The notes beneath the pieces are model-generated. The model searched no databases. It worked only from the letters and a program-made list of their open reading frames with translations, and was not told where the DNA came from. From Candidatus Melainabacteria bacterium 17Bon1m (GTDB taxonomy: Bacteria; Cyanobacteriota; Vampirovibrionia; Obscuribacterales; Obscuribacteraceae), in assembly GCA_032128875.1 (NCBI GenBank), contig JAVLKG010000002.1, forward strand, positions 960,001-1,024,000: a stretch of DNA of 64,000 nucleotides. The letters run 5' to 3'. Below, piece by piece: positions 3,237 to 15,466 of this stretch. Numbering within the stretch: the stretch's first letter is position 1; each line of letters begins with the position of its first letter. Position numbers and translations under genes: made by a program.

Positions 3237-5663
3237 ATTTTTAAAGATATTGAATTACGAGCGCTGCGTTCGCTTGAGTGGGACAAATTATTAGAGTTCC
3301 TCTCGCAAGAAGCTGAAAGCAAACGCGGAAAAGATCTGTGCCGCCAGGTTTTGCCAGGGCGCGAACGTGCGATTGTCAATGTTTTGCTCGCAGAGTCAGA
3401 TGAGGCGTTGGCGCTGATCTCTCAGCGTACAGGCATGTCGTTCGAGCGCTTGCCGGATCTCGACGAAACATTGAACAGGCTTGAATCTCAGGCTGTTCTT
3501 TCTGAGAGTGAATTGCATGCTTGCCGATTAGCGATGTCGTTGTCCAGGCAGGCTAGAAGGTCACTTTCTCTTCTTGACAATGAAGCATTTCCTGCTCTTC
3601 GCGCATATCTTCCTGCTCTTGCCGATTTCGAAAAGTTGCTAAGAGAGCTCAACGAAATGCTCGATGACGGCGGCAGAGTAAAAGACGATGCGACCCCGCA
3701 TTTAAGAGGTTTGAAAAGTGAAGTTAGACGTCTTGATTCAAAAATCAAAGACGAATTGAATAAAGTTATTCATTCTCAGACTCAGTCAAAAGCTCTTCAA
3801 GAGCCAATTTACACACAGAGAAACGGGCGCTATGTTTTGCCGGTAAGTGCTGCGCAACGGCATGTGGTTCCGGGAATCGTGCACGACAGTTCGCAAAGCG
3901 GATTGACCGTATACGTTGAGCCTATGCCGGTTGTGGAACTCGCAAACAAGCTGAGAATAAAGGAAGCGGAAATCGAACACGAGATTGCTCGCATTCTTTC
4001 CGTTTTGTCTCAACAAGTGTATGCGGGTCGTGATGAGCTTTCACAAGCATTCACTTCTCTGGCAGAATTGGATGCGATTTTTGCCAGGGCTCGCTTTGCC
4101 ACTAAATACGATGGCATTAAACCTGAGTTGAATGAAGAAAATCGTTTTGAATTCATCAGTGTACGTCATCCACTTCTCATACTTCAGTCAGCCAAGGAGA
4201 AGGTTGTTCCTAATACCGTAAGTTTAGGCGGTAAAGATAGAACACTTGTAATTACTGGCCCCAATACGGGCGGTAAAACAGTTCTTCTCAAGACTATCGG
4301 ACTTTTGTCTTTGATGGTCCGCGCCGGCTTGCTTATTCCTGCTGCCCGAGGATCGAAAGCAGCTTTGTTTACTCAGATTTTTGCCGATATTGGAGACGAG
4401 CAATCACTGGCTCAGAGCCTTTCCACATTCTCTTCGCACATGAAGACGATTGTGGAGGTGGTGAAAAGTTCAACGGTCGGTACTCTCGCGCTGCTGGATG
4501 AAATCGGTGTCGGAACGGATCCAAGAGAAGGAGCGGCAATTGCGCGCTCAGTACTCGAGCACCTCAACGATTCGGGAGCCGTCACAGTCAGTACGACCCA
4601 CTTCGGGCAGTTGAAGACTCTTGCTTACAACCTGCCCGGTATGGTGAATGGCAGTTTGGAATTTGATGAAACCACGCTGTCTCCTACCTACCGCTTACGT
4701 ACCGGTATTCCTGGAAGCTCGAAAGGCATTACGATTGCCCGCCGTTTGGGCCTGGATGAAAAACTGGTGGATCTGGCAATTTCTTACCTGGATGTGGCAG
4801 ATGCAGTCATTGATGAAACTGTGGCTCGCCTTGAGGAACGCATCAAGGGACTGGAGTCGAAAGAGGCACTGGCTCAGGAAAAGCTCGTTGAAGCCGAGCG
4901 TTTGACTCAAGAATTGCAGCTCGAAATAGATCGCGAAAGAGCGCAGAGCGAGGAAACCAGGCAAAAGCTCGCTAGCGATCTGAAAGAAGAATTCACTGTA
5001 GCCTTTGAATTAATCAAAGAGACGATAAGAAATCTGCAGAAAGAGCCCAGCATTTCCGGCGCTCAGAAGGCGAAAGAAAAAATGGAGCAGCTCAAAAAAG
5101 AGCTTAACTGGCTCGACTCTCCTGCAAAAAAAGGTGAAAAGACTGCGATCAAACTTTCAGTCGGCGATCGAGTTTCGGTCGTGAGTTTGAACCAGAGGGG
5201 CGTCATTGAAGAGCTTCCCGAAGGTGTGGAAAACAACCCTCGCGGAATTGTTGTCGTTAGGGCGGGTGCTGTCAAACTCAAAGTACCTGCAAGTGATATA
5301 AGACGCATATCGGACGGTGGTCAAAAGTCTGAAAAGGGTCGAGGCGGCGGCAATGCCGGCAAAGCTCGGGGACCTGCGCCTGTTCGTATATACCGAAACG
5401 AAACAAATGTATTTGTTCGCACGGAAATAAATACTCTCGACTTGCGAGGCGAAAGAGTCGATGCCGCGCTCATAAAACTCGAGCAATTTCTGGATGCCTG
5501 CCTGCTTTCCTCAATCAGTCCGGTGATGATTATTCATGGACATGGCACTGGCGCGGTCAAAGATGCCGTGCGGACTTTTCTTTCGAATAGTAACTACGTC
5601 TCGAAATTCCGACCTGGCGAGAACTATGAGGGAGCCGACGGTGTAACGGTCGCTGAATTGTAG
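3237..5663 (+). CDS. mutS2: Endonuclease MutS2 (ribosome-collision sensor RqcU family) with C-terminal Smr domain; start codon uncertain
   Basis: ITGPNTGGKT Walker A, DIGDEQS, LSTFSSHM, LLDEIGVGTDP, Smr LDLRG...IIHGHGTG; MutS2-like N-terminus LRSLEWDKL lies upstream of the first TTG (3351). Confidence 0.93.
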   Translation: MFKDIELRALRSLEWDKLLEFLSQEAESKRGKDLCRQVLPGRERAIVNVLLAESDEALALISQRTGMSFERLPDLDETLNRLESQAVLSESELHACRLAMSLSRQARRSLSLLDNEAFPALRAYLPALADFEKLLRELNEMLDDGGRVKDDATPHLRGLKSEVRRLDSKIKDELNKVIHSQTQSKALQEPIYTQRNGRYVLPVSAAQRHVVPGIVHDSSQSGLTVYVEPMPVVELANKLRIKEAEIEHEIARILSVLSQQVYAGRDELSQAFTSLAELDAIFARARFATKYDGIKPELNEENRFEFISVRHPLLILQSAKEKVVPNTVSLGGKDRTLVITGPNTGGKTVLLKTIGLLSLMVRAGLLIPAARGSKAALFTQIFADIGDEQSLAQSLSTFSSHMKTIVEVVKSSTVGTLALLDEIGVGTDPREGAAIARSVLEHLNDSGAVTVSTTHFGQLKTLAYNLPGMVNGSLEFDETTLSPTYRLRTGIPGSSKGITIARRLGLDEKLVDLAISYLDVADAVIDETVARLEERIKGLESKEALAQEKLVEAERLTQELQLEIDRERAQSEETRQKLASDLKEEFTVAFELIKETIRNLQKEPSISGAQKAKEKMEQLKKELNWLDSPAKKGEKTAIKLSVGDRVSVVSLNQRGVIEELPEGVENNPRGIVVVRAGAVKLKVPASDIRRISDGGQKSEKGRGGGNAGKARGPAPVRIYRNETNVFVRTEINTLDLRGERVDAALIKLEQFLDACLLSSISPVMIIHGHGTGAVKDAVRTFLSNSNYVSKFRPGENYEGADGVTVAEL

Positions 5664-5916
5664 TCCTGCAACCGCGTATTCCTCCCACCCTGGCGTAAAA
5701 ATTTTTTGTCCAGAACTGCAGTCCACTGTATAGAAGCAAGGACTGTCCTCAGTAGGTCGAGCCGACCTAACCCTTACGGAGCCCGACGAGACTTTCCAGG
5801 TTAATTCTTACGCCAATCGGTCTGGGTCTACGTGGTTTTCCCACATACAAATAAGGGAATGATATTTAAGCTGAGTGCAGCATTGGTGCTCCTTTCAGTC
5901 GCGTGAGGTTGTCAAG

Positions 5917-8900
5917 ATGGTCGAAGGGAATCAAGTTCCCGGCGGGGAAGAGATCGGCACACGGAGAGACGTTGTTGCAGAAAACAATGTCCAACCGGCA
6001 GCCGACAGATGGCAGGAAGACTACCAGCGAACGGTAGGTTTCCAGCCTCAGGATGGAACCAGCGAACGACAACAAGTCGCGGCGGGCTACGACCGCAACT
6101 TGGGTTACGACCGCATTGCCGTCGGCAATACGGCGCTCGGTCAACGCATCGACAACATCACCAATCTCCTGGCGATGGGCGAACGCTCCGCCGGAAATCT
6201 GCAAGACGTCAACCGCTTCTACGGCAGAGCACAGAAAGAAGCAGACGACCTTTTCAGTGTTGCCGCTCAGAACGTAATGAAGGGTCGCGAAGACTATCGC
6301 GCCATCCTTTCAGCAAAGAGCCCGCAAGAAGTATTTCAGGGCGTCGAAGCTTCCATTCAGAAGCAGACCCAAGTATTGCAACAACAACTTCAGCAAGAAA
6401 GAGATCCTGCCAGAGCCAGACGACTCGAGCAGATTCTTGCCATGGAGCAAGAGCGCGCTCAGACTCTCGAGCGCATGAAGCAGACGAATAACCCGCAAGA
6501 ACTGAACCGTCTATTAATGTACGACGCGTTCAGTGCTCAGCGTATAGATCTATCTCAGAAGATGATGAATGAGAGAGATCCCAATCAAGTTAGATTGATG
6601 GCCGAAGCAGAACAGAATCTGCACACGGTACAGCGTGCACCTGGTTTTACGCGCGCCAATTACGGCATGCTCCTGATGCGTATGGGGCAATACGATCCAA
6701 ATAGACCGGACAACGCCGCGTTGCGCGCACTTCAAGATGCCGCGTCAGTTGATCCTGAAATGGTCCCTAATCCTAATAGTGCAGATCCGGCACGCCGCAT
6801 GGGCGATCCTAATTTCATGCGCGTTGCATCTGACATCACTCGCATGAGTCCGGACGATCCGAATTTTGCCCGCGCGATGGCCCCTATCTTTAATAGGGAT
6901 ATCAACCGCTCGCCTTCACCGTTGCAGGCTGCAGAAAATACAAATCCGAATGCACGTTATTCGCAAGTTCAAGAACAGCCCTACCAACCTGCAAGAGATG
7001 GCGGTAATCGCCCGCTCGAGCAACAACGCGTAACTGATCAAACACAAGGAGTTACTCCTCTGGTCAATGGAAAGACTCCTTTCCAGCGCGTACAAGAATT
7101 GGGAAAAGTTGTCGAAGCGCAAGGTTTGACACCTGATGTCCGTCAGGCTTATGTATCAGCGATTCAAGATTCTGATAAAGGGACCTCGCCGCGTGTAGCG
7201 GAGCTGCAAGCCCAGCTGGCTCAGCTCGAGCAAAAACAGCAAGCACTCGCTCAAAAGGTTCAAGAAGTTCAGCAAAGTCCTGAAATTGCACAGCTCGTTC
7301 AGTCCGGTATGGCCAAACTGAAGGCACGTCCTGAAGCTGAGCAGCAGCAATTGAAGGCTTTGACCGAGCAATTGCAGAAAACTCAAGATAAAGCGGAGCG
7401 TGAAAAACTGCTCGGCGATATCAATAAGATCTGTCCGGAATTTGTTCAAGTCACAAAATTGCTCGAACAGAAGCTGAAGCCGTTTACCGACGAGCTTCAA
7501 CAAATTCAGCAACAAGGGGCCGCTCTCACCAATGATCTGATTGGTGAAATGAATCAGTCTTCCGCCACTCGCATGGAATATGCCGAGAAGCTCATGAAGT
7601 CTGACAAGCCGGAAGACAAAGAGGCTGCCAAACAACTCCTTATCGAGTCTGTCGCCAAAGCAAAACCGGAACAGCGTGAAGCCTTCGCACAATACGCTCA
7701 GCAGTTGGGACTGACGAAGCAAGAACTCGAACAGGGTCTTGCAAAGATTCCTCAAGCACAAGTCGAGCGTTCCGCCACTCAGCCGGGAGCACAGCCAGGC
7801 GTAGAAACCGGTGAAAGAACCGGCGCCGGCAAACTAATCGACGAAAACAAAAAAGCTTTTGACGCTGCTCAAGACAAGAAAGCCAAACTGGCTGAAATGC
7901 AGGGTTCGTTCAAGAAAGCGATCACTGACGCCGACAAAGAATTCGCCGACGCAGAGACCAGATATAACGCTCTGGATGCAGCTCACACTAAAGCCGCCAA
8001 TGACATGCCGGCTGAGGACAAAGCTAAGTTCCAGAAGATGTTGACGCAAGGCACTCCGGATGCCGAAAAGCAAGCTCTGCAGCAAGAGCTTTCGACCAAG
8101 TACGCAAATATCGTCCAGATGGAAACAGAAATGAAAGCCATCAAAGACGGTGCCCTCGATCTGGCGCTCAACAAATTCGAAGCTCGCTACGAATTTGCCC
8201 GCGCATCGAATTTGGGCGGCGATGATGCCACTGCTAAAGCAATGATGTCCGAAGGGATCAAGACCCTCACTAAGGATGTAGGCACTGAGCTGACCGCCAA
8301 GGTGATGGAAGATCCAGGCGTTGCAGATGTGGCTAAGAAACTCGGCGTTGATGCGAATGCACTGATGAAAGAGGCAGCCGCCGAAGCTCCAGCTGCACAA
8401 CCGGGCAGTGATACCGCAGGCGCTACCGGTGACTTGCAAGGCACCTTGCGCGTTGCTAATGCTCGCATGCAGAAGGGCGATATTGCCGGCGCCAAGCAAG
8501 CTTACGAATCAGCCATCAAGATGGTTGATGCTTCATTCAATCCTGACGAGAACAACAGGAAGATCAAAGAAGCTCAAGATCTACTCGAAAAAGGCAATCT
8601 CACGATTGAGCAGCGCCTGCAAAAACAACAGGAAATTGCAGGTTATTTCAACCAAGCCTACCAGGCATTCGATATAAGAAGCGGATACGCCAGAATTTTG
8701 GCGCACCCGAACTACAATCAAAACGCCGCCGCTGAAGCAGCATTCAAAGATGCGGTGGCCGCAGCAGACAAAGTACCGGTTCAAGCAATGAAGCGTCAAA
8801 TCGGCTTGCTTGCAAACGATATCGGTACCTTCCAAACTGCATACGAACAAGCGACCGGCGACAGAAAGACTCAAATCGAACAAGCGCAGGCTTTCCTTAG

Positions 8901-11313
8901 CGAATTCTCCAACACCTTGAACGGTCAAACGACCGGTGGCGGACCCGCTGCAGACAAAGCGTGGATGAACACGCAAATCAACGCACGCAAAGACCTGGCT
9001 TCCTTCTATGTTCGACTGGTAACCGACATAGATGAGAAGGGTCAGCCGATCATGAAGTCGGATGGCAAGCCTAGATACGTGCCCGACGCTTCCAAAGTCT
9101 TCAAGCCCGAAGAAGCGATGAAGGCAATAGACGAAGCAAAAGCGAAGTATAAGGAATTGCATGGCACCGATCTGGATAAAGATCCTGCCAAAGATCCGAC
9201 TCTGGCAGAATTGGCTAAAGGTATTTACGACAATAGCCCTGCCGAACTGCAGAAGAAGTACCAGAACGTTTCACGCTACTGGGATGAAGCGAAAGCAAGC
9301 ATTCCAACATTGGTCGCCGGCGTCGGCTCAGCTCTTTTGTTGGCCAAGTTCAAGCCATTGAGACCACTTATTGGCGAAAGTGCAGCCGCAACCTGGGGTA
9401 CCGCACTTGTCGGTGGATCTGGTGTCGCATCAGTGACGCACCACACCATGATGAACAACGTGCTTGGTCGTGAAGACAATACGTGGGGCAGAAGTATTGC
9501 CACCGGTACAGGTCTCACACTCGGCGGCGTCGGACTTATGAAAGTACCGAAGATGCTCTTCCGTAATGCCGATGATGTAGCTATGGCTTCTGTTATCGAA
9601 CGCGGCGGCGCCGGCGGTATGAAGTTCCATCCTGCTGTAGAAGGCGCAGCTCCTAAGCTGATGAACCTTGATGAACTCAAGGCTGCCAAAGACCTTCTCG
9701 GAACGAAGCAGGCAAGTATGACTGCCGAAGCGTTTGCAGCAGAGTCCAAGCAACTTGATTCACTGATAAGAGCCAGCCAAAACCGTGATGCTCTATGGGC
9801 ATTACAGGCAGGCAAGAATGGTGCCAAACTTACAGGCGGCTTTGATGCCGAATTGGCTAGAGCTGCAACTGGCGCAGATAAAGCCGCTTTGGTCGACAGA
9901 CTGGGCGGCGCCGTCAAGAAATTCGCACCGGAATTGAGACTTGCTCAAGAAGCGCCTAAGTACGGCGAAATTCTTGCGCAAAGAGGTGGCATTGTCGTCA
10001 AAGATCAAGCCATCGTTGAAAAACTGATTGCCGCTGATCTGCCGGTCATCAGAACCGCTGCCGGTGAGAACGTCCTGGCGATGAGAACAGCCGGCGAACT
10101 CGAGGCGGCACTCAAAGCAATTCCAAATATCGAGCCCAAACTGCTCGGTGCTAAGAATCTGAAGACTGCAACAGCGCAAGCGACTAAGATGCTTGATGAT
10201 TTGGCTGCCACCGGTCTGAAGGGCGACGACTTGCTCGCTCCAGCTCTGAAAAATGCCACACTGGAAAATCAGGCGCAGCTCAATCTCTTGCGTAATCTGG
10301 TTCCGGAAGCGGCAGCAGAAGCTAAATTGGCAGGACGTTTCGGCGGCGTTGCTCAATTGGAAAGAGAGGGCTTGCTCTCCAAAGGTTACGGATTTGCCAC
10401 CGGTAAGTTTGGAGCTCCTATCATCGGTACGACCGCTGGGTTCGGACACGAACTATACAGTTCGAATGCCGAAAACAGAGACTTCAGCTTCGGCAACGCA
10501 GCAGTCAAATCGGCACTCGTTGCCGGCGGACTCTGGGGAGGCGGCAAAGTCATCGAATATGGACACGGTATCGTTAAGCCGATGGGCGCTAAGACTTTCG
10601 CTGATCTCGGTCACTCGCGCTTCATGGCCGGATCTGCCGGCGGAGCCGCCTTCTACTCGGGTTCCAACTACTTACCTGCATGGCAGCACATGTACGGTGG
10701 AGAAGGTAATCTCGATCCGAAGACAGGTAAGCCTTACGAATTCAACTTCAGCAACGCCATCGTTGCTCCAGCCTGGAAAGACGCCGGAGACAACATCTTC
10801 GTCAGCTCCTTCCTGCTGGGCGGTATGGCTGCCAAACCGGGTCAAGCAATTTTGGCTCAAGCTCCTTGGGCTAATTCGAGAATGCTCTGGAAGCCTTTCT
10901 CTGCAGCCGGCGGCGTATTCACCGGTTCTACCTGGAACTACCTGGGCGCTCGCTCCATGCCTGTTCTAGGAGAAATCGGACCAGCGCTGAGCACCAACAT
11001 GGCAATGGGCCAGTTCGAGTTGCTCAACAATCTCTCCAACAGAGACGCTGGTCGCCAATACACCGATGCCTTGAAGATGAAGGACCAGCAGATCACCGAC
11101 GAGTCGCCTGAAGCGATTCAGAAACGTCTGGCTGACTTGAAAGCGCAGCAAGAAAAACAGCAGCAACAGCAGCAACAACAACAGCAAGAACAGCAAAAGC
11201 AACAACAACAGAAGAAGCCAGATGCCCAACCAGGTACCCAGCAAGGGACTGAGCAAGGCAATGGAAATCAGCCTCGTCCGGAAAATCCGGACTTGACCGG
11301 CGGCGTTCAATAA
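5917..11313 (+). CDS. Giant hypothetical protein (~1798 aa): helical/coiled-coil TPR-like N-terminal two-thirds, Gly/Ala-rich hydrophobic C-terminal region, poly-Q tail
   Basis: 5.4-kb ORF with strong codon bias; GAGGT RBS at 5905-5909 before ATG 5917 (MVEGNQ). Confidence 0.9.
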   Translation: MVEGNQVPGGEEIGTRRDVVAENNVQPAADRWQEDYQRTVGFQPQDGTSERQQVAAGYDRNLGYDRIAVGNTALGQRIDNITNLLAMGERSAGNLQDVNRFYGRAQKEADDLFSVAAQNVMKGREDYRAILSAKSPQEVFQGVEASIQKQTQVLQQQLQQERDPARARRLEQILAMEQERAQTLERMKQTNNPQELNRLLMYDAFSAQRIDLSQKMMNERDPNQVRLMAEAEQNLHTVQRAPGFTRANYGMLLMRMGQYDPNRPDNAALRALQDAASVDPEMVPNPNSADPARRMGDPNFMRVASDITRMSPDDPNFARAMAPIFNRDINRSPSPLQAAENTNPNARYSQVQEQPYQPARDGGNRPLEQQRVTDQTQGVTPLVNGKTPFQRVQELGKVVEAQGLTPDVRQAYVSAIQDSDKGTSPRVAELQAQLAQLEQKQQALAQKVQEVQQSPEIAQLVQSGMAKLKARPEAEQQQLKALTEQLQKTQDKAEREKLLGDINKICPEFVQVTKLLEQKLKPFTDELQQIQQQGAALTNDLIGEMNQSSATRMEYAEKLMKSDKPEDKEAAKQLLIESVAKAKPEQREAFAQYAQQLGLTKQELEQGLAKIPQAQVERSATQPGAQPGVETGERTGAGKLIDENKKAFDAAQDKKAKLAEMQGSFKKAITDADKEFADAETRYNALDAAHTKAANDMPAEDKAKFQKMLTQGTPDAEKQALQQELSTKYANIVQMETEMKAIKDGALDLALNKFEARYEFARASNLGGDDATAKAMMSEGIKTLTKDVGTELTAKVMEDPGVADVAKKLGVDANALMKEAAAEAPAAQPGSDTAGATGDLQGTLRVANARMQKGDIAGAKQAYESAIKMVDASFNPDENNRKIKEAQDLLEKGNLTIEQRLQKQQEIAGYFNQAYQAFDIRSGYARILAHPNYNQNAAAEAAFKDAVAAADKVPVQAMKRQIGLLANDIGTFQTAYEQATGDRKTQIEQAQAFLSEFSNTLNGQTTGGGPAADKAWMNTQINARKDLASFYVRLVTDIDEKGQPIMKSDGKPRYVPDASKVFKPEEAMKAIDEAKAKYKELHGTDLDKDPAKDPTLAELAKGIYDNSPAELQKKYQNVSRYWDEAKASIPTLVAGVGSALLLAKFKPLRPLIGESAAATWGTALVGGSGVASVTHHTMMNNVLGREDNTWGRSIATGTGLTLGGVGLMKVPKMLFRNADDVAMASVIERGGAGGMKFHPAVEGAAPKLMNLDELKAAKDLLGTKQASMTAEAFAAESKQLDSLIRASQNRDALWALQAGKNGAKLTGGFDAELARAATGADKAALVDRLGGAVKKFAPELRLAQEAPKYGEILAQRGGIVVKDQAIVEKLIAADLPVIRTAAGENVLAMRTAGELEAALKAIPNIEPKLLGAKNLKTATAQATKMLDDLAATGLKGDDLLAPALKNATLENQAQLNLLRNLVPEAAAEAKLAGRFGGVAQLEREGLLSKGYGFATGKFGAPIIGTTAGFGHELYSSNAENRDFSFGNAAVKSALVAGGLWGGGKVIEYGHGIVKPMGAKTFADLGHSRFMAGSAGGAAFYSGSNYLPAWQHMYGGEGNLDPKTGKPYEFNFSNAIVAPAWKDAGDNIFVSSFLLGGMAAKPGQAILAQAPWANSRMLWKPFSAAGGVFTGSTWNYLGARSMPVLGEIGPALSTNMAMGQFELLNNLSNRDAGRQYTDALKMKDQQITDESPEAIQKRLADLKAQQEKQQQQQQQQQQEQQKQQQQKKPDAQPGTQQGTEQGNGNQPRPENPDLTGGVQ
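11146..11211 (+). repeat. CAG/CAA poly-glutamine tract in the tail of the giant protein
   Basis: Encodes QQEKQQQQQQQQQQEQQKQQQQ. Confidence 0.9.
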
Positions 11314-11317
11314 AATC

Positions 11318-11343
11318 GTGGCTTCTGCTTGCGTAGAAGCCAC
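11318..11343 (+). terminator. Strong hairpin after the giant ORF (terminator or 3' stabiliser; weak U-tract)
   Basis: GTGGCTTCT-GCTTGCGT-AGAAGCCAC, perfect 9-bp stem 4 nt after the stop. Confidence 0.55.
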
Positions 11344-11592
11344 ACTGATTCCTGAAATTCGTGGAGGCGAATTATCAAAACGGGGTTATATTATAGATAA
11401 GATTTTTTATCTGGAGATTCCTGACTAAGGAACCTCCGGATAGCTACTTAAGGGACCCAGGAAAGCAAATTGAGCAGCGGAGATTTAGCCCAAAACAGCC
11501 AGAGAGTGTCCAGAAAGTTTGTATCCCGTATACATGCAGACAAGCACCTTTGCGCTACCAAATTTGCTCTCCGAAAAGAGGTTACTACCTAA

Positions 11593-14500
11593 ATGGTTGA
11601 ACGAAATCAGTACGAGCCAAGTCTGAAGCCCATCAATCAGGGCGACGTCCAAGGTGAAGGTGAAAACCAGAACACCGAAAACGCCCAATTGACGTATTCA
11701 GATGTTATGCGTGCCAAATACGAAGCACCGCAACGCGCCGAGACTCAACAAGTTTCCGATCGTACTAATGTTTCCGACGTCAAAGATCCGGACATCATCA
11801 AAGCTTTCACTCTGGTAGACAATGCCAAAGAAGCATCGATGCTTCTCAATATTCAAGAAAGCAAACAGCCCGACAACACAAAAGTTGAGATGGCTGATGC
11901 TAATGGTCGTCCATTTACTATTACTCTTGGCGAACTCAAGCAAAAGCTCATTGAAGATTTGACAAAGAATTCTGATTTTAAAGGATTCAACGATGCTGGT
12001 CAGCTGAGAGAATTCATCAGCAAGTCTACAGACGCCGCGCTTACTCTCAGCACACAAACCAGAGAGAAGTACGAGGCAAAATCAAGAGAGAGCGATACCA
12101 ACGTCAATGCTCGCAACGAGTTGGCTAAGCAACTTGGTTTTCAACCAACCACCCGTGAAATTCCGGACGGCAATGGCGGCAAGAAGTCCGTAACCTCTTA
12201 CGATATTACTCAAAAGGATATCGATGCCCGTTTGGCTACAACCACAGATGCTGGTCAGAAAGCCAACCTCGAAAAGCTCAAAGGTCTTTTGACCAATTAC
12301 GACAGTATTCAAAAAGAACGCAACGCACTTTCGGCCGTTGACGTTACCGCTGCTCAGTTGATGATGGGCGGTTTCACTCACAAGGCCGGTGAGCAAACTC
12401 TCGAAGGGTTGCCTGCAACCAGAAGCGAAGTTATGCGCTCTTACGAGATCATGAACAAGGCCGGTCGCGGCAACGCTCAACTCGAGCAGACTCCTCAGTT
12501 CCAAATGGTGAAGGAGCAATCCAGCGCCATGTACGCCGACATCCAACTGCAACGCAGCAAAGATGCCGTCAATGCGCTGCAGGAAGCAGACAAATTGAGA
12601 GTCGCCGGCAAGCCCACCGAAGCTCAAGCAAAGTACGAAGAAGCCCTTCAGAAAGTGAAAGGCGTCGACATGGCAACGATTACCACTCAGTGGCAATCGC
12701 AAATGAGAGAGTTCAATACTGTTCAAGAGAAATTGACCGCGCTCGGCAATCCTCCTTCCAATCCGCAAGAAGCGCAGCGTCTTGCTACCGAACTTCAACA
12801 GCGCCAACAAATCGGTTTGCAACTCGAGCAAATCATTCAAGTCGGCAAAGAAGTAAAAACCGAATACGCACGTTTTCTCAATGAGCAAGGCAAGCCTGGC
12901 GAAGCGCTTCCGCTCTTGACCAGCGTCGCTTCCGGAACTCCTCAAGAATTGCTCGCCGGTGATACTACTTTCACCGAGCAGTTGGAAAAAGCTCAAAGCC
13001 TCGGCTCGATCACCAGCGGTGATGCCGAAAAGCACCGCGTCCTTTATGAACAAGCGATGGCTTCCAAAGATTGGACGACTGCCGAGCGCGAAATGGCTGC
13101 TCTCAAAGCTGCTTCAACCAAAGCATCTGAAGCCACCATCCAAGGTGCCAAAGATCGCGTCGCCGTAATGGACAAGAGACAAGCAGAGCTCAAGGCCGAA
13201 GCGGAAGACTTGAAAAAGAACACCACTATGGATGCTGATGCAAAAGCTCTTCGTCAACAACAAATTGATGCAGAGTTGAAAGGCTACGATGTTCTGCGCA
13301 AAGGGTTGTCCGATGGAATTCCGGCTGCCGAGAAAGCTGCTAAAGAGCATGCTAATCAGCTTCGCTACATGGAAGGCATCATTGCTTATTCCAAAGAAGA
13401 CAAAGAAACAGCACACAAAATCTTCAAAGAACTGGAAGCAGAAGCGCCAGAAATCGCCAGCAACAAAGACTACCAATTGGATGCTTTGCTCGAAGACACT
13501 CGCAAGAAAGGCTGGCTCGAGCGTCACTGGGATACGATTGTGAGCGTAGGCAAGATTGTTGCCGTAGTTGGTGCAATCGCTGTTGCCGGTGCAGTCACCG
13601 GTGGTGTCGGAGCAGTCGCACTCGCTGGTGCACTCGGCGCCGCTGGCGTATTCACTGTCGGCGCTGTCGGACACGGTGTTGCCAAAGCCAACGACTGGAA
13701 GTCCACAGACAACTATCACAACTGGAGACCAGGACAAGATTTGCTTATGGGTGCAGCCGGCGGCGCCGGCGGTGCTGCATTGCAAGGACTGTTCGCTGCC
13801 GGCGGAACCGCTGGTTTGGGCGGCAGAATGGTGGCAGCCGGCGGCAGAATTGCTGCAGCAGAAGGCGGCGCAACATTCGGCTCGACAGCTCTCAATGTAG
13901 GCGGCAACGCTCTCATCAGAGGCACTCAACTGGCATCACAAGCCACCACCTTCAAGGGTGCTCTCACCGTGGGTGCTACCTACGGATATGGCGGCGAAGC
14001 AGTAAACTCGTTGACTACCGGAAAACAATTCAGCTTTGGCGATGCCACCAGCAAGACTGCTGGCATGAGCACAGCCCTCTTCTTAGCCGGCAGGACTGGT
14101 GGACTTGGTTCATTCAAGGGCTCGATGGTATACGGCGGCGTCCGAACCGTAGAAGAGCAAGGCAGAGATGTTGTACACGGCAAAGACATCAGTCAAGCGG
14201 CTATGGACAGTCTTGGCAGCTTCGGAAAACACAGCTTCGACGCATTTGCAGTCGGCACCATCGCCAATATGAACGCCGCAGCGCAAGCCGGCAGATTCCA
14301 ATTGGCAAGAGCATTGCCCGAAGGTCAAGCGCTCAACTGGAATTCTGCTCGTCAGTTTGCGGTCAACCTGCCAGGTGCAACCGGCAGCAACCTCCTGTCG
14401 CAAGGCAGATTGGTGTTCAAAGAAGGCATGACCATGACCGGCAAGCAAGGCGCCGTTGTGGGCGCGCTCGGTACCGGACTTGTAGGCTGGCAAGTGCACC

Positions 14501-14643
14501 AAGGTGATGTTGCTTACGATGAAAGCCGCACTGCCAAGACCTGGGATACTCAGGATAATATGACCCGCATGAGAATGAACCAAACAATGGAAGCACTCTC
14601 AAAACCAGTGCCAAAACCGGTCATCAGACGTCCGCAACCGTAA
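11593..14643 (+). CDS. Large hypothetical protein (1016 aa): coiled-coil/TPR-like N-half, glycine-zipper hydrophobic C-half
   Basis: 3-kb ORF; GAGG RBS; hydrophobic block VGKIVAVVGAIAVAGAVTGGVGAVALAGALGAAGVFTVGAVG. Confidence 0.9.
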   Translation: MVERNQYEPSLKPINQGDVQGEGENQNTENAQLTYSDVMRAKYEAPQRAETQQVSDRTNVSDVKDPDIIKAFTLVDNAKEASMLLNIQESKQPDNTKVEMADANGRPFTITLGELKQKLIEDLTKNSDFKGFNDAGQLREFISKSTDAALTLSTQTREKYEAKSRESDTNVNARNELAKQLGFQPTTREIPDGNGGKKSVTSYDITQKDIDARLATTTDAGQKANLEKLKGLLTNYDSIQKERNALSAVDVTAAQLMMGGFTHKAGEQTLEGLPATRSEVMRSYEIMNKAGRGNAQLEQTPQFQMVKEQSSAMYADIQLQRSKDAVNALQEADKLRVAGKPTEAQAKYEEALQKVKGVDMATITTQWQSQMREFNTVQEKLTALGNPPSNPQEAQRLATELQQRQQIGLQLEQIIQVGKEVKTEYARFLNEQGKPGEALPLLTSVASGTPQELLAGDTTFTEQLEKAQSLGSITSGDAEKHRVLYEQAMASKDWTTAEREMAALKAASTKASEATIQGAKDRVAVMDKRQAELKAEAEDLKKNTTMDADAKALRQQQIDAELKGYDVLRKGLSDGIPAAEKAAKEHANQLRYMEGIIAYSKEDKETAHKIFKELEAEAPEIASNKDYQLDALLEDTRKKGWLERHWDTIVSVGKIVAVVGAIAVAGAVTGGVGAVALAGALGAAGVFTVGAVGHGVAKANDWKSTDNYHNWRPGQDLLMGAAGGAGGAALQGLFAAGGTAGLGGRMVAAGGRIAAAEGGATFGSTALNVGGNALIRGTQLASQATTFKGALTVGATYGYGGEAVNSLTTGKQFSFGDATSKTAGMSTALFLAGRTGGLGSFKGSMVYGGVRTVEEQGRDVVHGKDISQAAMDSLGSFGKHSFDAFAVGTIANMNAAAQAGRFQLARALPEGQALNWNSARQFAVNLPGATGSNLLSQGRLVFKEGMTMTGKQGAVVGALGTGLVGWQVHQGDVAYDESRTAKTWDTQDNMTRMRMNQTMEALSKPVPKPVIRRPQP

Positions 14644-14707: not shown

Positions 14708-15466
14708 ATGCCGCATCTTTCGGTAATCATTCCGGCTTACAACGAAGAAAAGAGGTTGCCGACTACGCTCGAGTCGGTGCATGCTTTCTTGTCTGAAACC
14801 GGTCAAGACTTTGAAATAATCGTTGTTGACGACGGCAGCAGCGATAATACAAAGGCGGTTGTCAACGACTTTGCGGGTACGCACTGCAGCGTCAGGTTGA
14901 TTGCGCATACACCGAATATGGGCAAAGGATATTCAGTGCGTGAGGGTATGCTCAAAGCGCAGGGAGAATATCTCCTGCTTGATGATGCTGACGGTGCTTC
15001 GCCGATTGCTGAAGTCGTGCGACTGCTGAGCGCAATTGAAGCTGGGGCCGATGTGGCGATTGGCTCACGTGCTAAGCCAGGCGACGAAACTGTTGTGAAG
15101 GCTCTCTCTCACCGCAAACATATCGGCAATACATTCAATTTGATTGTTCAATCGTCATTGCTGCCGGGGATACAAGACACGCAATGCGGTTTCAAACTTT
15201 TTAAGCGAGATGTTGCCATGGATTTGTTCTCGATTGCGAGATTGAACCGCTACGCTTTCGATGTGGAAATACTCTATCTGGCAAGAATGAAAGGCTATGA
15301 GATTGCTGAAGTGCCAATCAATTGGACCAATGTCGAAGGCTCCAAAATAAATCTCGTGACTGATCCTATGAGTATGCTTTTTGAAATCGGCAAAGTAATT
15401 CTTGGGCGTATGCTTGGAAGTTATGGCAAATTGTCGAAGTCCAAGCAACGGCCGTCCGACGGCTAA
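14708..15466 (+). CDS. GT2 glycosyltransferase, dolichyl/polyprenyl-phosphate glucosyltransferase-like
   Basis: LSVIIPAYNEE, VVDDGSSD, NMGKGYSVREG, DADGA, DTQCGFKLF, FDVEIL; GGAGG RBS. Confidence 0.92.
   Translation: MPHLSVIIPAYNEEKRLPTTLESVHAFLSETGQDFEIIVVDDGSSDNTKAVVNDFAGTHCSVRLIAHTPNMGKGYSVREGMLKAQGEYLLLDDADGASPIAEVVRLLSAIEAGADVAIGSRAKPGDETVVKALSHRKHIGNTFNLIVQSSLLPGIQDTQCGFKLFKRDVAMDLFSIARLNRYAFDVEILYLARMKGYEIAEVPINWTNVEGSKINLVTDPMSMLFEIGKVILGRMLGSYGKLSKSKQRPSDG

Follow-up and report, generated by a model that had tools for sequence, protein, structure and literature searches.

An order-specific pair of uncharacterized paralogous protein families with a shared promoter-like motif in Obscuribacterales

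What do two neighboring giant genes without a known family do in bacteria whose lifestyle is largely unknown? The question is raised by a 64,000-nucleotide stretch of DNA (the window; positions 960,001 to 1,024,000, forward strand, of contig JAVLKG010000002.1, assembly GCA_032128875.1) from Candidatus Melainabacteria bacterium 17Bon1m. The organism belongs to the Obscuribacterales, uncultured non-photosynthetic relatives of cyanobacteria, and as judged by sequence comparison the two genes, here named A and B, are found only there. A preliminary description made from the letters alone had proposed a two-component, membrane-inserting or surface system exported without the Sec pathway. The source genome (7.55 Mb, 93% complete) is called G000 and its contigs C1, C2 and so on. 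The genes are:

5917 to 11313, plus strand: gene A, an intact open reading frame (ORF) of 1798 amino acids with one Cys, without a signal peptide, starting with MVEGNQ
11593 to 14643, plus strand: gene B, an intact ORF of 1016 amino acids with no Cys, without a signal peptide, starting with MVERNQ

By sequence, A and B stand for two protein families that are specific to the order and have no entry in Pfam or NCBIfam: A had no match in either collection and B only sub-threshold matches to the tetratricopeptide repeat (TPR). The survey covered 250 genomes of the class that were at least 85% complete, 79 from the order and 171 from other orders. The B family was present in 62 of the 79 and the A family in 51; neither occurred in any of the 171. 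Run against 1.84 billion representatives, the B profile matched 93 clusters at E≤1e-10, and the close relatives of both proteins carry the names Ca. Obscuribacterales or Melainabacteria. All 52 genomes with A (G000 included; a hand count of the listed places) also have B, and in 47 of them A lies directly upstream of B on the same strand or is fused to it. Fusions were found in four genomes of one genus, and proteins of 3.1–3.3 thousand amino acids are also among the B-profile clusters. Of the five remaining genomes, two belong to the second family of the order and three are fragmented assemblies. Gene order supports the earlier view that the two genes form a unit.

The two proteins are also related to each other. 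Searches with phmmer and cross-searches with hidden Markov models found no link between A and B and no close paralogues in G000, only weak matches at C4:552553 and C16:66237. Profile–profile comparison (HHalign) linked them at 98.3% (E 1.2e-14) through their N-terminal helical parts, confirming the relatedness suspected before. When the repeats were cut into units, four in A and three in B matched one another with P 70–97%, and reversed columns gave at most 2.9%. The repeats are located as follows:

6349 to 8796, plus strand: in A, four TPR-like repeats interrupted by coiled coils (residues 145–315, 385–605, 640–815 and 836–960), by profile–profile comparison
11770 to 13512, plus strand: in B, three interrupted TPR-like repeats (residues 60–312, 315–472 and 474–640), with a predicted local distance difference test score (pLDDT) mostly of 80–95

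A structure model of B built from 79 sequences (mean pLDDT 74, predicted template modeling score 0.53) contains TPR hairpins with long coiled coils inserted; its N-terminal 640 amino acids are TPR-like and its C-terminal part is of low confidence. It matched TPR structures with Z of about 10–11.6 and a root mean square deviation (rmsd) of about 2 over 83–101 residues, and Pfam TPR scores are at or over the cut-off in several family members. Because the helical part is a common TPR-like repeat, A and B are, on these comparisons, distant paralogues. Neither this repeat nor the promoter-like motif presented below had been recognized in the preliminary description. The search for a known fold that it had recommended gave only generic TPR proteins for B, and no pore-forming toxin fold was among the structure-search matches listed, which excludes nothing. 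Foldseek with B returned one match at E≤0.001 (TM 0.07) and none with the C-terminal model, a whole-B search of the Atlas gave scores under 0.9, and searches of PDB sequences with A and B gave weak helical matches only. Prediction of a complex between the A and B cores scored 0.00 and gave no answer.

Both genes are preceded by a conserved bipartite promoter-like motif, which is new here:

5706 to 5734, plus strand: motif upstream of A, TGTCCARAA-N11-YGTATASA (rank 1 genome-wide, 29.6 bits)
11506 to 11534, plus strand: motif upstream of B (rank 4 genome-wide, 25.7 bits)

When the DNA upstream of A and B was sampled for motifs, TGTCCARAA-N11/12-YGTATASA emerged for both genes across genera, with 20.4 bits per sequence against about 12 in shuffled DNA. 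The motif reads as TTGTCC-17-TATAGA in sigma-70 spacing and is a putative promoter; a scan with the sigma-70 consensus itself stayed at chance level. The genome-wide ranks come from a matrix built from the sites of 32 relatives only. The strict motif precedes 44 of 67 family genes compared with 2 of 247 other genes of the same loci, and those two are signal-less genes in the same slot; the 44/67 count is circular because the strict pattern was designed on these upstream regions. In G000 it precedes 16 of 5009 genes, compared with 2–4 in shuffles. The scan of 14 other genomes gave 17 exact matches, in eight of the nine family genomes, whereas the backwards pattern appeared in no family genome and once in another order. 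All 17 are intergenic, and 16 have an ORF 68–194 nucleotides downstream. None of these 16 ORFs, which include four A/B family genes and among which kin are not independent, has a hydrophobic N-terminus; in G000 as a whole, 39.5% of genes lack one. A and B are a real order-specific pair of uncharacterized paralogous families with a putative shared regulon.

The genes behind the high-scoring G000 sites are mostly Pfam-less and Cys-poor with polar starts. They also include a Rhs/YD-repeat protein, a TPR-CHAT protein that stands behind the motif in two other genera too, an EF-hand esterase and the weak paralogue at C4:552553. An S41 peptidase among them does carry a signal and so departs from the signal-less set. 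The motif could serve to list candidate effectors in any Obscuribacterales genome and, together with the two order-specific families, it makes export and target range testable. A 1773-amino acid Cys-free signal-less protein is encoded under the motif beside fabF (G000:C2:372389-377743, L087; also L037-L040), and its orthologue in four members of the genus (G002, G003, G007 and G009) is followed by an A paralogue of 820–830 amino acids that G000 lacks. At G000:C15:61067-71214 (L050), a signal-less Rhs/YD protein that matches annexin and PRTase-CE weakly faces another protein without a signal, which carries a GP30.3/NADAR-like domain. The region G000:C11:118061-124497 (L088) encodes proteins with EF-hands and LysM that likewise lack a signal; one of them has a protease domain of the calpain family.

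G000 encodes 17 sigma-70 proteins, and two possible regulatory links to the motif did not hold. The cyanobacterial SigF regulon has a different published core consensus, given in PMC2532724 as TAGGC (-32) and GGTAA (-12). Autoregulation of an extracytoplasmic function (ECF)-like sigma gene through the motif was discarded because the site, present in G000, precedes only 1 of 30 orthologues in the strict form and 3 of 30 in the loose form. This divergent gene (G000:C5:391470-392918, L082) is found in 68 of the 79 order genomes and none of the 171 others, is missed by Pfam Sigma70_r2 and is followed by a gene of unknown type encoding 232 amino acids. The gene of a SigF-like sigma factor (G000:C1:1124676-1125557, L090) lies within the locus of the type IV pilus, with pilC-like genes on one side and ABC transporter genes on the other.

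Family members used for counts of starts, motifs and hydropathy were 79 for B and 15 for A. The lack of a Sec signal peptide extends to the families: the N-terminus is not hydrophobic, with a hydropathy peak below 1.0 in 72 B and 13 A members. The shared MVExNQ start, real in both window proteins, recurs in only 7 B and 2 A members and does not act as a common signal genome-wide, where M[VA]E.{1,2}NQ matched two unrelated ORFs internally plus one more. A weak L-x-x-[DE]-A type leader lies at about residues 20–40 of the B family (627 bits against 529–556 in shuffles, which had fewer restarts); as a regular expression it gave 10 early matches in the 5009 G000 genes, with no clear class. Beyond the repeats, the following segments were delimited:

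9274 to 9606, plus strand: in A, a Trp and then a marginally hydrophobic Gly/Ala-rich segment (residues 1120–1230)
13513 to 13797, plus strand: in B, a W-x-x-R-[NH]-W helix and a Gly/Ala-rich hydrophobic hairpin (residues 641–735)
13933 to 14286, plus strand: in B, a predicted four-helix glycine-rich bundle holding the shared block (residues 781–898; pLDDT about 58–85)
10429 to 10515, plus strand: shared 29-amino acid block, A copy, by BLASTP and profile–profile comparison
13975 to 14061, plus strand: shared 29-amino acid block, B copy, inside the glycine-rich bundle

The R-[YH]-W-D tetrapeptide, proposed as the switch into these segments, occurs once per protein (A1120 and B644), but the motif kept by the families is W-x-x-R-[NH]-W before the B hairpin (W in 56, R in 49 and W in 43 of the 79 members), of which A keeps only the W (11 of 15). 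Of the Gly/Ala-rich hydrophobic segments described earlier, that of B is a clear hairpin, with two hydrophobic helices at residues 641–699 and further glycine-rich helices after them, and that of A is marginal. Hydrophobicity was scored on a position-independent scale, with 207 internal membrane segments of G000 as reference. The best B segment had a median of 1.59 against genome quartiles of -1.43 to 1.84, and the best A segment, at 3.79, fell between genome membrane segments and soluble proteins (6.98). In composition the best B segment differs from the 207 (Gly+Ala 0.47 against 0.26; Leu/Ile/Phe 0.21 against 0.37). The hydrophobic regions of A and B align weakly with each other (P 26%, profile–profile). 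Modeled alone, the C-terminal part of B reached a mean pLDDT of 46, and its residues at about 773–907 matched the glycine-zipper bundles of Tim17/Tim22 (6lo8_A, Tim22, Z 8.4, rmsd 3.3, 106 aligned; 7cgp_A, Z 7.5) as well as complex I chain Y (8bef_Y, Z 8.5). With that pLDDT, Z values at the common helical-bundle level and no Pfam Tim17 match, the Tim17/Tim22 likeness is a lead only.

The shared block was found exactly as first described, with 12 of 29 identities (43 of 87 nucleotides; BLASTP E=5e-5), and is significant in profile–profile comparison (P=71% against 0.4% reversed). When a profile was made from the B copy, it matched A orthologues with E values between 1e-9 and 1e-17, and one orthologue had two matches. 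The block is not a trait of the families at large: among 108 family proteins it was found in 27, almost all of them from close kin of the window's genus. It looks like a module passed between A and B genes within this lineage. Two observations on similar regions can be added. From a reading of its sequence, one B-family member (L013, G015:C338) has an EF-hand-like insertion just before the hairpin. Further large signal-less Cys-poor proteins with Gly/Ala hairpins are encoded at G000:C3:422491-431023 (L047) and C16:66237-68603 (L048); one of these is a tandem pair, and no Pfam match over the cut-off was found for them.

A and B occupy a slot between two conserved genes:

3351 to 5663, plus strand: mutS2, upstream of A (TIGR01069, E=3.7e-226)
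14708 to 15466, plus strand: GT2 glycosyltransferase, downstream of B (PF00535, E=1.2e-34)

Among 15 further loci around B matches, 10 are flanked by both mutS2 and GT2, two by one of them, and three lie elsewhere. Loci differ in having one, two or three giant genes of 650–3200 amino acids in this slot, with tandem expansions, and most genomes have one A/B copy. Since almost all loci have GT2 after the slot (64 nucleotides after B here) and a weak YfhO match comes next in the window, A and B could be surface or envelope glycoproteins, exported without Sec and modified with the help of GT2 and membrane glycosyltransferase-like neighbors; their low Cys content and moderately high codon bias fit as well. 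We regard this as very improbable: no surface-layer or anchor domain was found in A or B with Pfam, one locus has a B copy beyond GT2, the gene after GT2 varies, and the slot may be mere synteny because mutS2 is as constant as GT2. The codon usage itself, first described as that of highly expressed genes, does lean to the ribosomal set and is moderately high, with B at rank 126 and A at rank 244 of 3559. A self-consistent codon adaptation index converged on AT-rich genes and was not used; the AT-rich clusters that dominated its set lie on contigs C7, C8 and C13 and are possibly foreign DNA or bin contamination. Three contigs from RNA libraries of one sample, possibly the one that the window came from, match the region with 0 differences, and being 31–54 kb long and flat they give no evidence on expression.

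The alleles in the slot point to a further explanation. In G011 the DNA identity is 88–97% for A and 89–97% for GT2, and 65–81% for B, and the B hairpin is 94% identical between G004 and G009 beside segments at 40–42%. By sequence, the locus is mosaic within the genus and B alleles have been exchanged. Such allelic exchange of C-terminal modules is the behavior of polymorphic toxins, and each protein could be a polymorphic pore-forming toxin or a kin-recognition protein, whose variable C-terminal half would be the payload or would mark identity. In language-model features, residues 630–910 of B come close to Rhs-associated (0.92) and DUF637 (0.86) clusters, which is no more than a lead, and like A/B the pre-toxin membrane-entry regions of Rhs and CdiA/DUF637 proteins have glycine-rich helical hairpins and exchange modules; each gene also has its own motif copy. 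Unlike those toxins, A and B have no Rhs core, C-terminal toxin domain, immunity gene or adjoining two-partner transporter. The longest closed ORF is 40 amino acids between A and B and 14 after B, leaving no room for an immunity gene; Pfam toxin/enzyme, trafficking and C-terminal toxin domains were absent from 53 B and 16 A-locus proteins, and orphan C-terminal cassettes were not seen in the loci examined. A strictly ordered heterologous pair fits cooperation better. Delivery is favored over the killing of kin because there are no toxin domains, no immunity gene and a strict pairing, and we consider the toxin or recognition role quite unlikely.

Which machine could export such proteins? The inventory of secretion systems proposed earlier turned up two VirB4-type loci, pili and secretins, and, in G000, no type III secretion system (T3SS), flagellum, type VI sheath or WXG100. 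The T3SS/flagellar export gate proteins FHIPEP (PF00771) and FliP (PF00813) gave 0 matches in G000, with positive controls, and for this reason a T3SS translocator in the strict sense, as first suggested, is not upheld in this 93% complete genome. VipB, WXG100 and phage-type sheaths were not found either. G000 contains three secretins, PilB/PilT, an ATPase locus that we read as Tad-like, two VirB4-like ATPases (both found with PF19044 and missed with PF03135) and a VirD4-like protein, these last three over Pfam cut-offs and under NCBIfam equivalog cut-offs. Close VirB4 homologues (E≤1e-30) were present in all 79 order genomes, mostly two in each, and in none of the 171 others; those of G000 score best, below cut-off, to CD1110/TraC-type models. 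Some non-Sec export route is suggested by the signal-less LysM proteins in the genome. The chromosomal VirB4-type loci are at G000:C3:872807-888608 (L045, L046) and G000:C1:790908-808895 (L043). Across most of the order the C3 VirB4 keeps 71–80% identity, and no gene for a coupling protein lies next to it. Both loci also encode a multi-pass protein of 1.7–1.8 thousand amino acids; that of C1 is strongly biased in its codon usage (rank 16 of 3559).

The explanation we prefer, at somewhat less than an even chance, builds on the paralogy of A and B, their conserved arrangement and fusions, their confinement to one order, the mosaic alleles, the motif with the genes behind it, the two VirB4-type loci and the T3SS gate that was not found. 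In it, A and B would be an exported pair that inserts in the membrane of a target cell as a two-part, translocon-like delivery pore, likely by type IV secretion. The two would be made together under the shared promoter-like motif and exported together, probably through one of the two type IV secretion systems (T4SS) that this order encodes on the chromosome. By analogy with the separate TPR chaperones of translocators, the TPR repeats may shield the hydrophobic helices before export as built-in chaperones. In the target membrane, B would form the two-helix major part and A the amphipathic minor part, as in T3SS translocator pairs, and the pore would deliver other signal-less proteins under the motif. 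To our knowledge, the passage of proteins across the target membrane by type IV machines is poorly defined, and a type IV translocon, if A/B is one, would address it.

Known systems offer partial models. T3SS translocators are encoded as adjacent pairs, and A and B likewise are an adjacent pair with a coiled coil followed by one or two hydrophobic segments. The pairs IpaB/IpaC (with IpgC) and AopB (with AcrH) share with A/B the adjacency and the coiled coil before the hydrophobic region. Excerpts of PMC8117225 add the lack of a Sec signal and TPR helices associated with the hydrophobic protein, and describe IpgC as protecting the membrane domain of IpaB. Unlike those translocators, A and B carry the TPRs inside the proteins, reach sizes of 1–1.8 thousand amino acids, have (with their family members) no Pfam/NCBIfam translocator match and occur in a genome where no export gate was found; an IpaB coiled-coil match to the B model (Z 9.4, rmsd 4.2, 114 aligned) stands among generic helical rows. 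Bipartite alpha-pore-forming toxins of the ClyA superfamily (YaxAB/XaxAB) are encoded by two adjacent signal-less genes with a hydrophobic hairpin in one partner. In contrast to them, the modeled body of B consists of TPR-like repeats, and no sequence match to them was found in Pfam or PDB sequences. On present evidence, A and B would work like a translocator pair and are members neither of the T3SS translocator families nor of the polymorphic toxin families. As for the machine, a lineage-wide VirB4 with a proposed non-conjugative cell-contact role recurs in the relaxase-poor chromosomal T4SS of Patescibacteria (excerpt of PMC12102498), and a T4SS was proposed for predation in Vampirovibrio chlorellavorus (excerpt of PMC4451040). 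The excerpts of neither source name a translocon-like substrate pair. The Vampirovibrio VirB4 is of the T type, which differs from the CD1110/TraC-type affinity in G000.

Several observations weigh against export and delivery. VirB4 and a coupling protein are present, as T4SS protein substrates require, but A/B lies beside neither of the type IV loci. In G000 no strict motif was found within or ahead of the T4SS, Tad, type IV pilus or secretin loci either, so neither linkage to nor shared regulation with the machine was seen. The co-restriction of A/B and VirB4 to one order is a single event, 17 of the 79 order genomes have VirB4 and no B match, and A and B are not adjacent in the order's second family. 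Within G000, seven strict-motif matches are on the reverse strand, the polar-start, low-Cys class holds 5 of the 16 strict-motif genes (3 of 14 without A and B), and the tail of matrix matches is noise because 51 of 91 low-threshold matches lie inside genes. Finally, the B hairpin, within the interquartile range of genome membrane segments, is hydrophobic enough for an ordinary anchor and has Lys/Arg on its N-side and an uncharged turn.

That hairpin would suit an N-in/C-in topology, in which A and B stay home as a TPR scaffold, B anchored in the cell's own inner membrane with both ends cytoplasmic and A peripheral. It might, for instance, shape membranes, or serve the co-regulated signal-less proteins as a chaperone or as a platform on which they are sorted. 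Such a scaffold needs no export signal and agrees with the purely generic TPR fold matches, the fixed place among housekeeping genes and the mostly single copy per genome. It accounts poorly for the Gly/Ala-rich composition, and the mosaic exchange, the fast divergence of the C-terminal half, the tandem expansions and the 650–3200-amino acid sizes at one slot would be unusual for a housekeeping scaffold. We rate it unlikely, though the most serious competitor of the delivery pore. If A and B are such a pore, a broader proposal, which we consider rather improbable as a whole, is that Obscuribacterales carry an undescribed system for injecting proteins, in which a chromosomal type IV machine present throughout the order has a dedicated, self-chaperoned A/B translocon heading its own signal-less effector regulon. 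These common uncultured bacteria would then be contact-dependent predators or parasites. We found no paper on secreted proteins of Obscuribacterales and no published description of the A/B proteins or the motif, subscription papers not being covered.

Two other non-coding elements lie around gene A:

5829 to 5872, plus strand: second conserved element in the A leader, TACGTRGTTTYCCCA...GGGAATGAT...TAAGCT, order-wide
11317 to 11344, no strand assigned: 10-pair hairpin directly after the A stop, with a terminator-like listing on the minus strand; a consensus match only

The leader element reached 35.9 bits per sequence in 20 A upstream regions, against about 15 in shuffles. It had no Rfam match and no consensus RNA structure, and was not enriched genome-wide (19 matches against 49 in the control). 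Just before the hairpin, the end of A encodes a poly-Gln tail (window 11143–11310) that is kept in orthologues of the genus.

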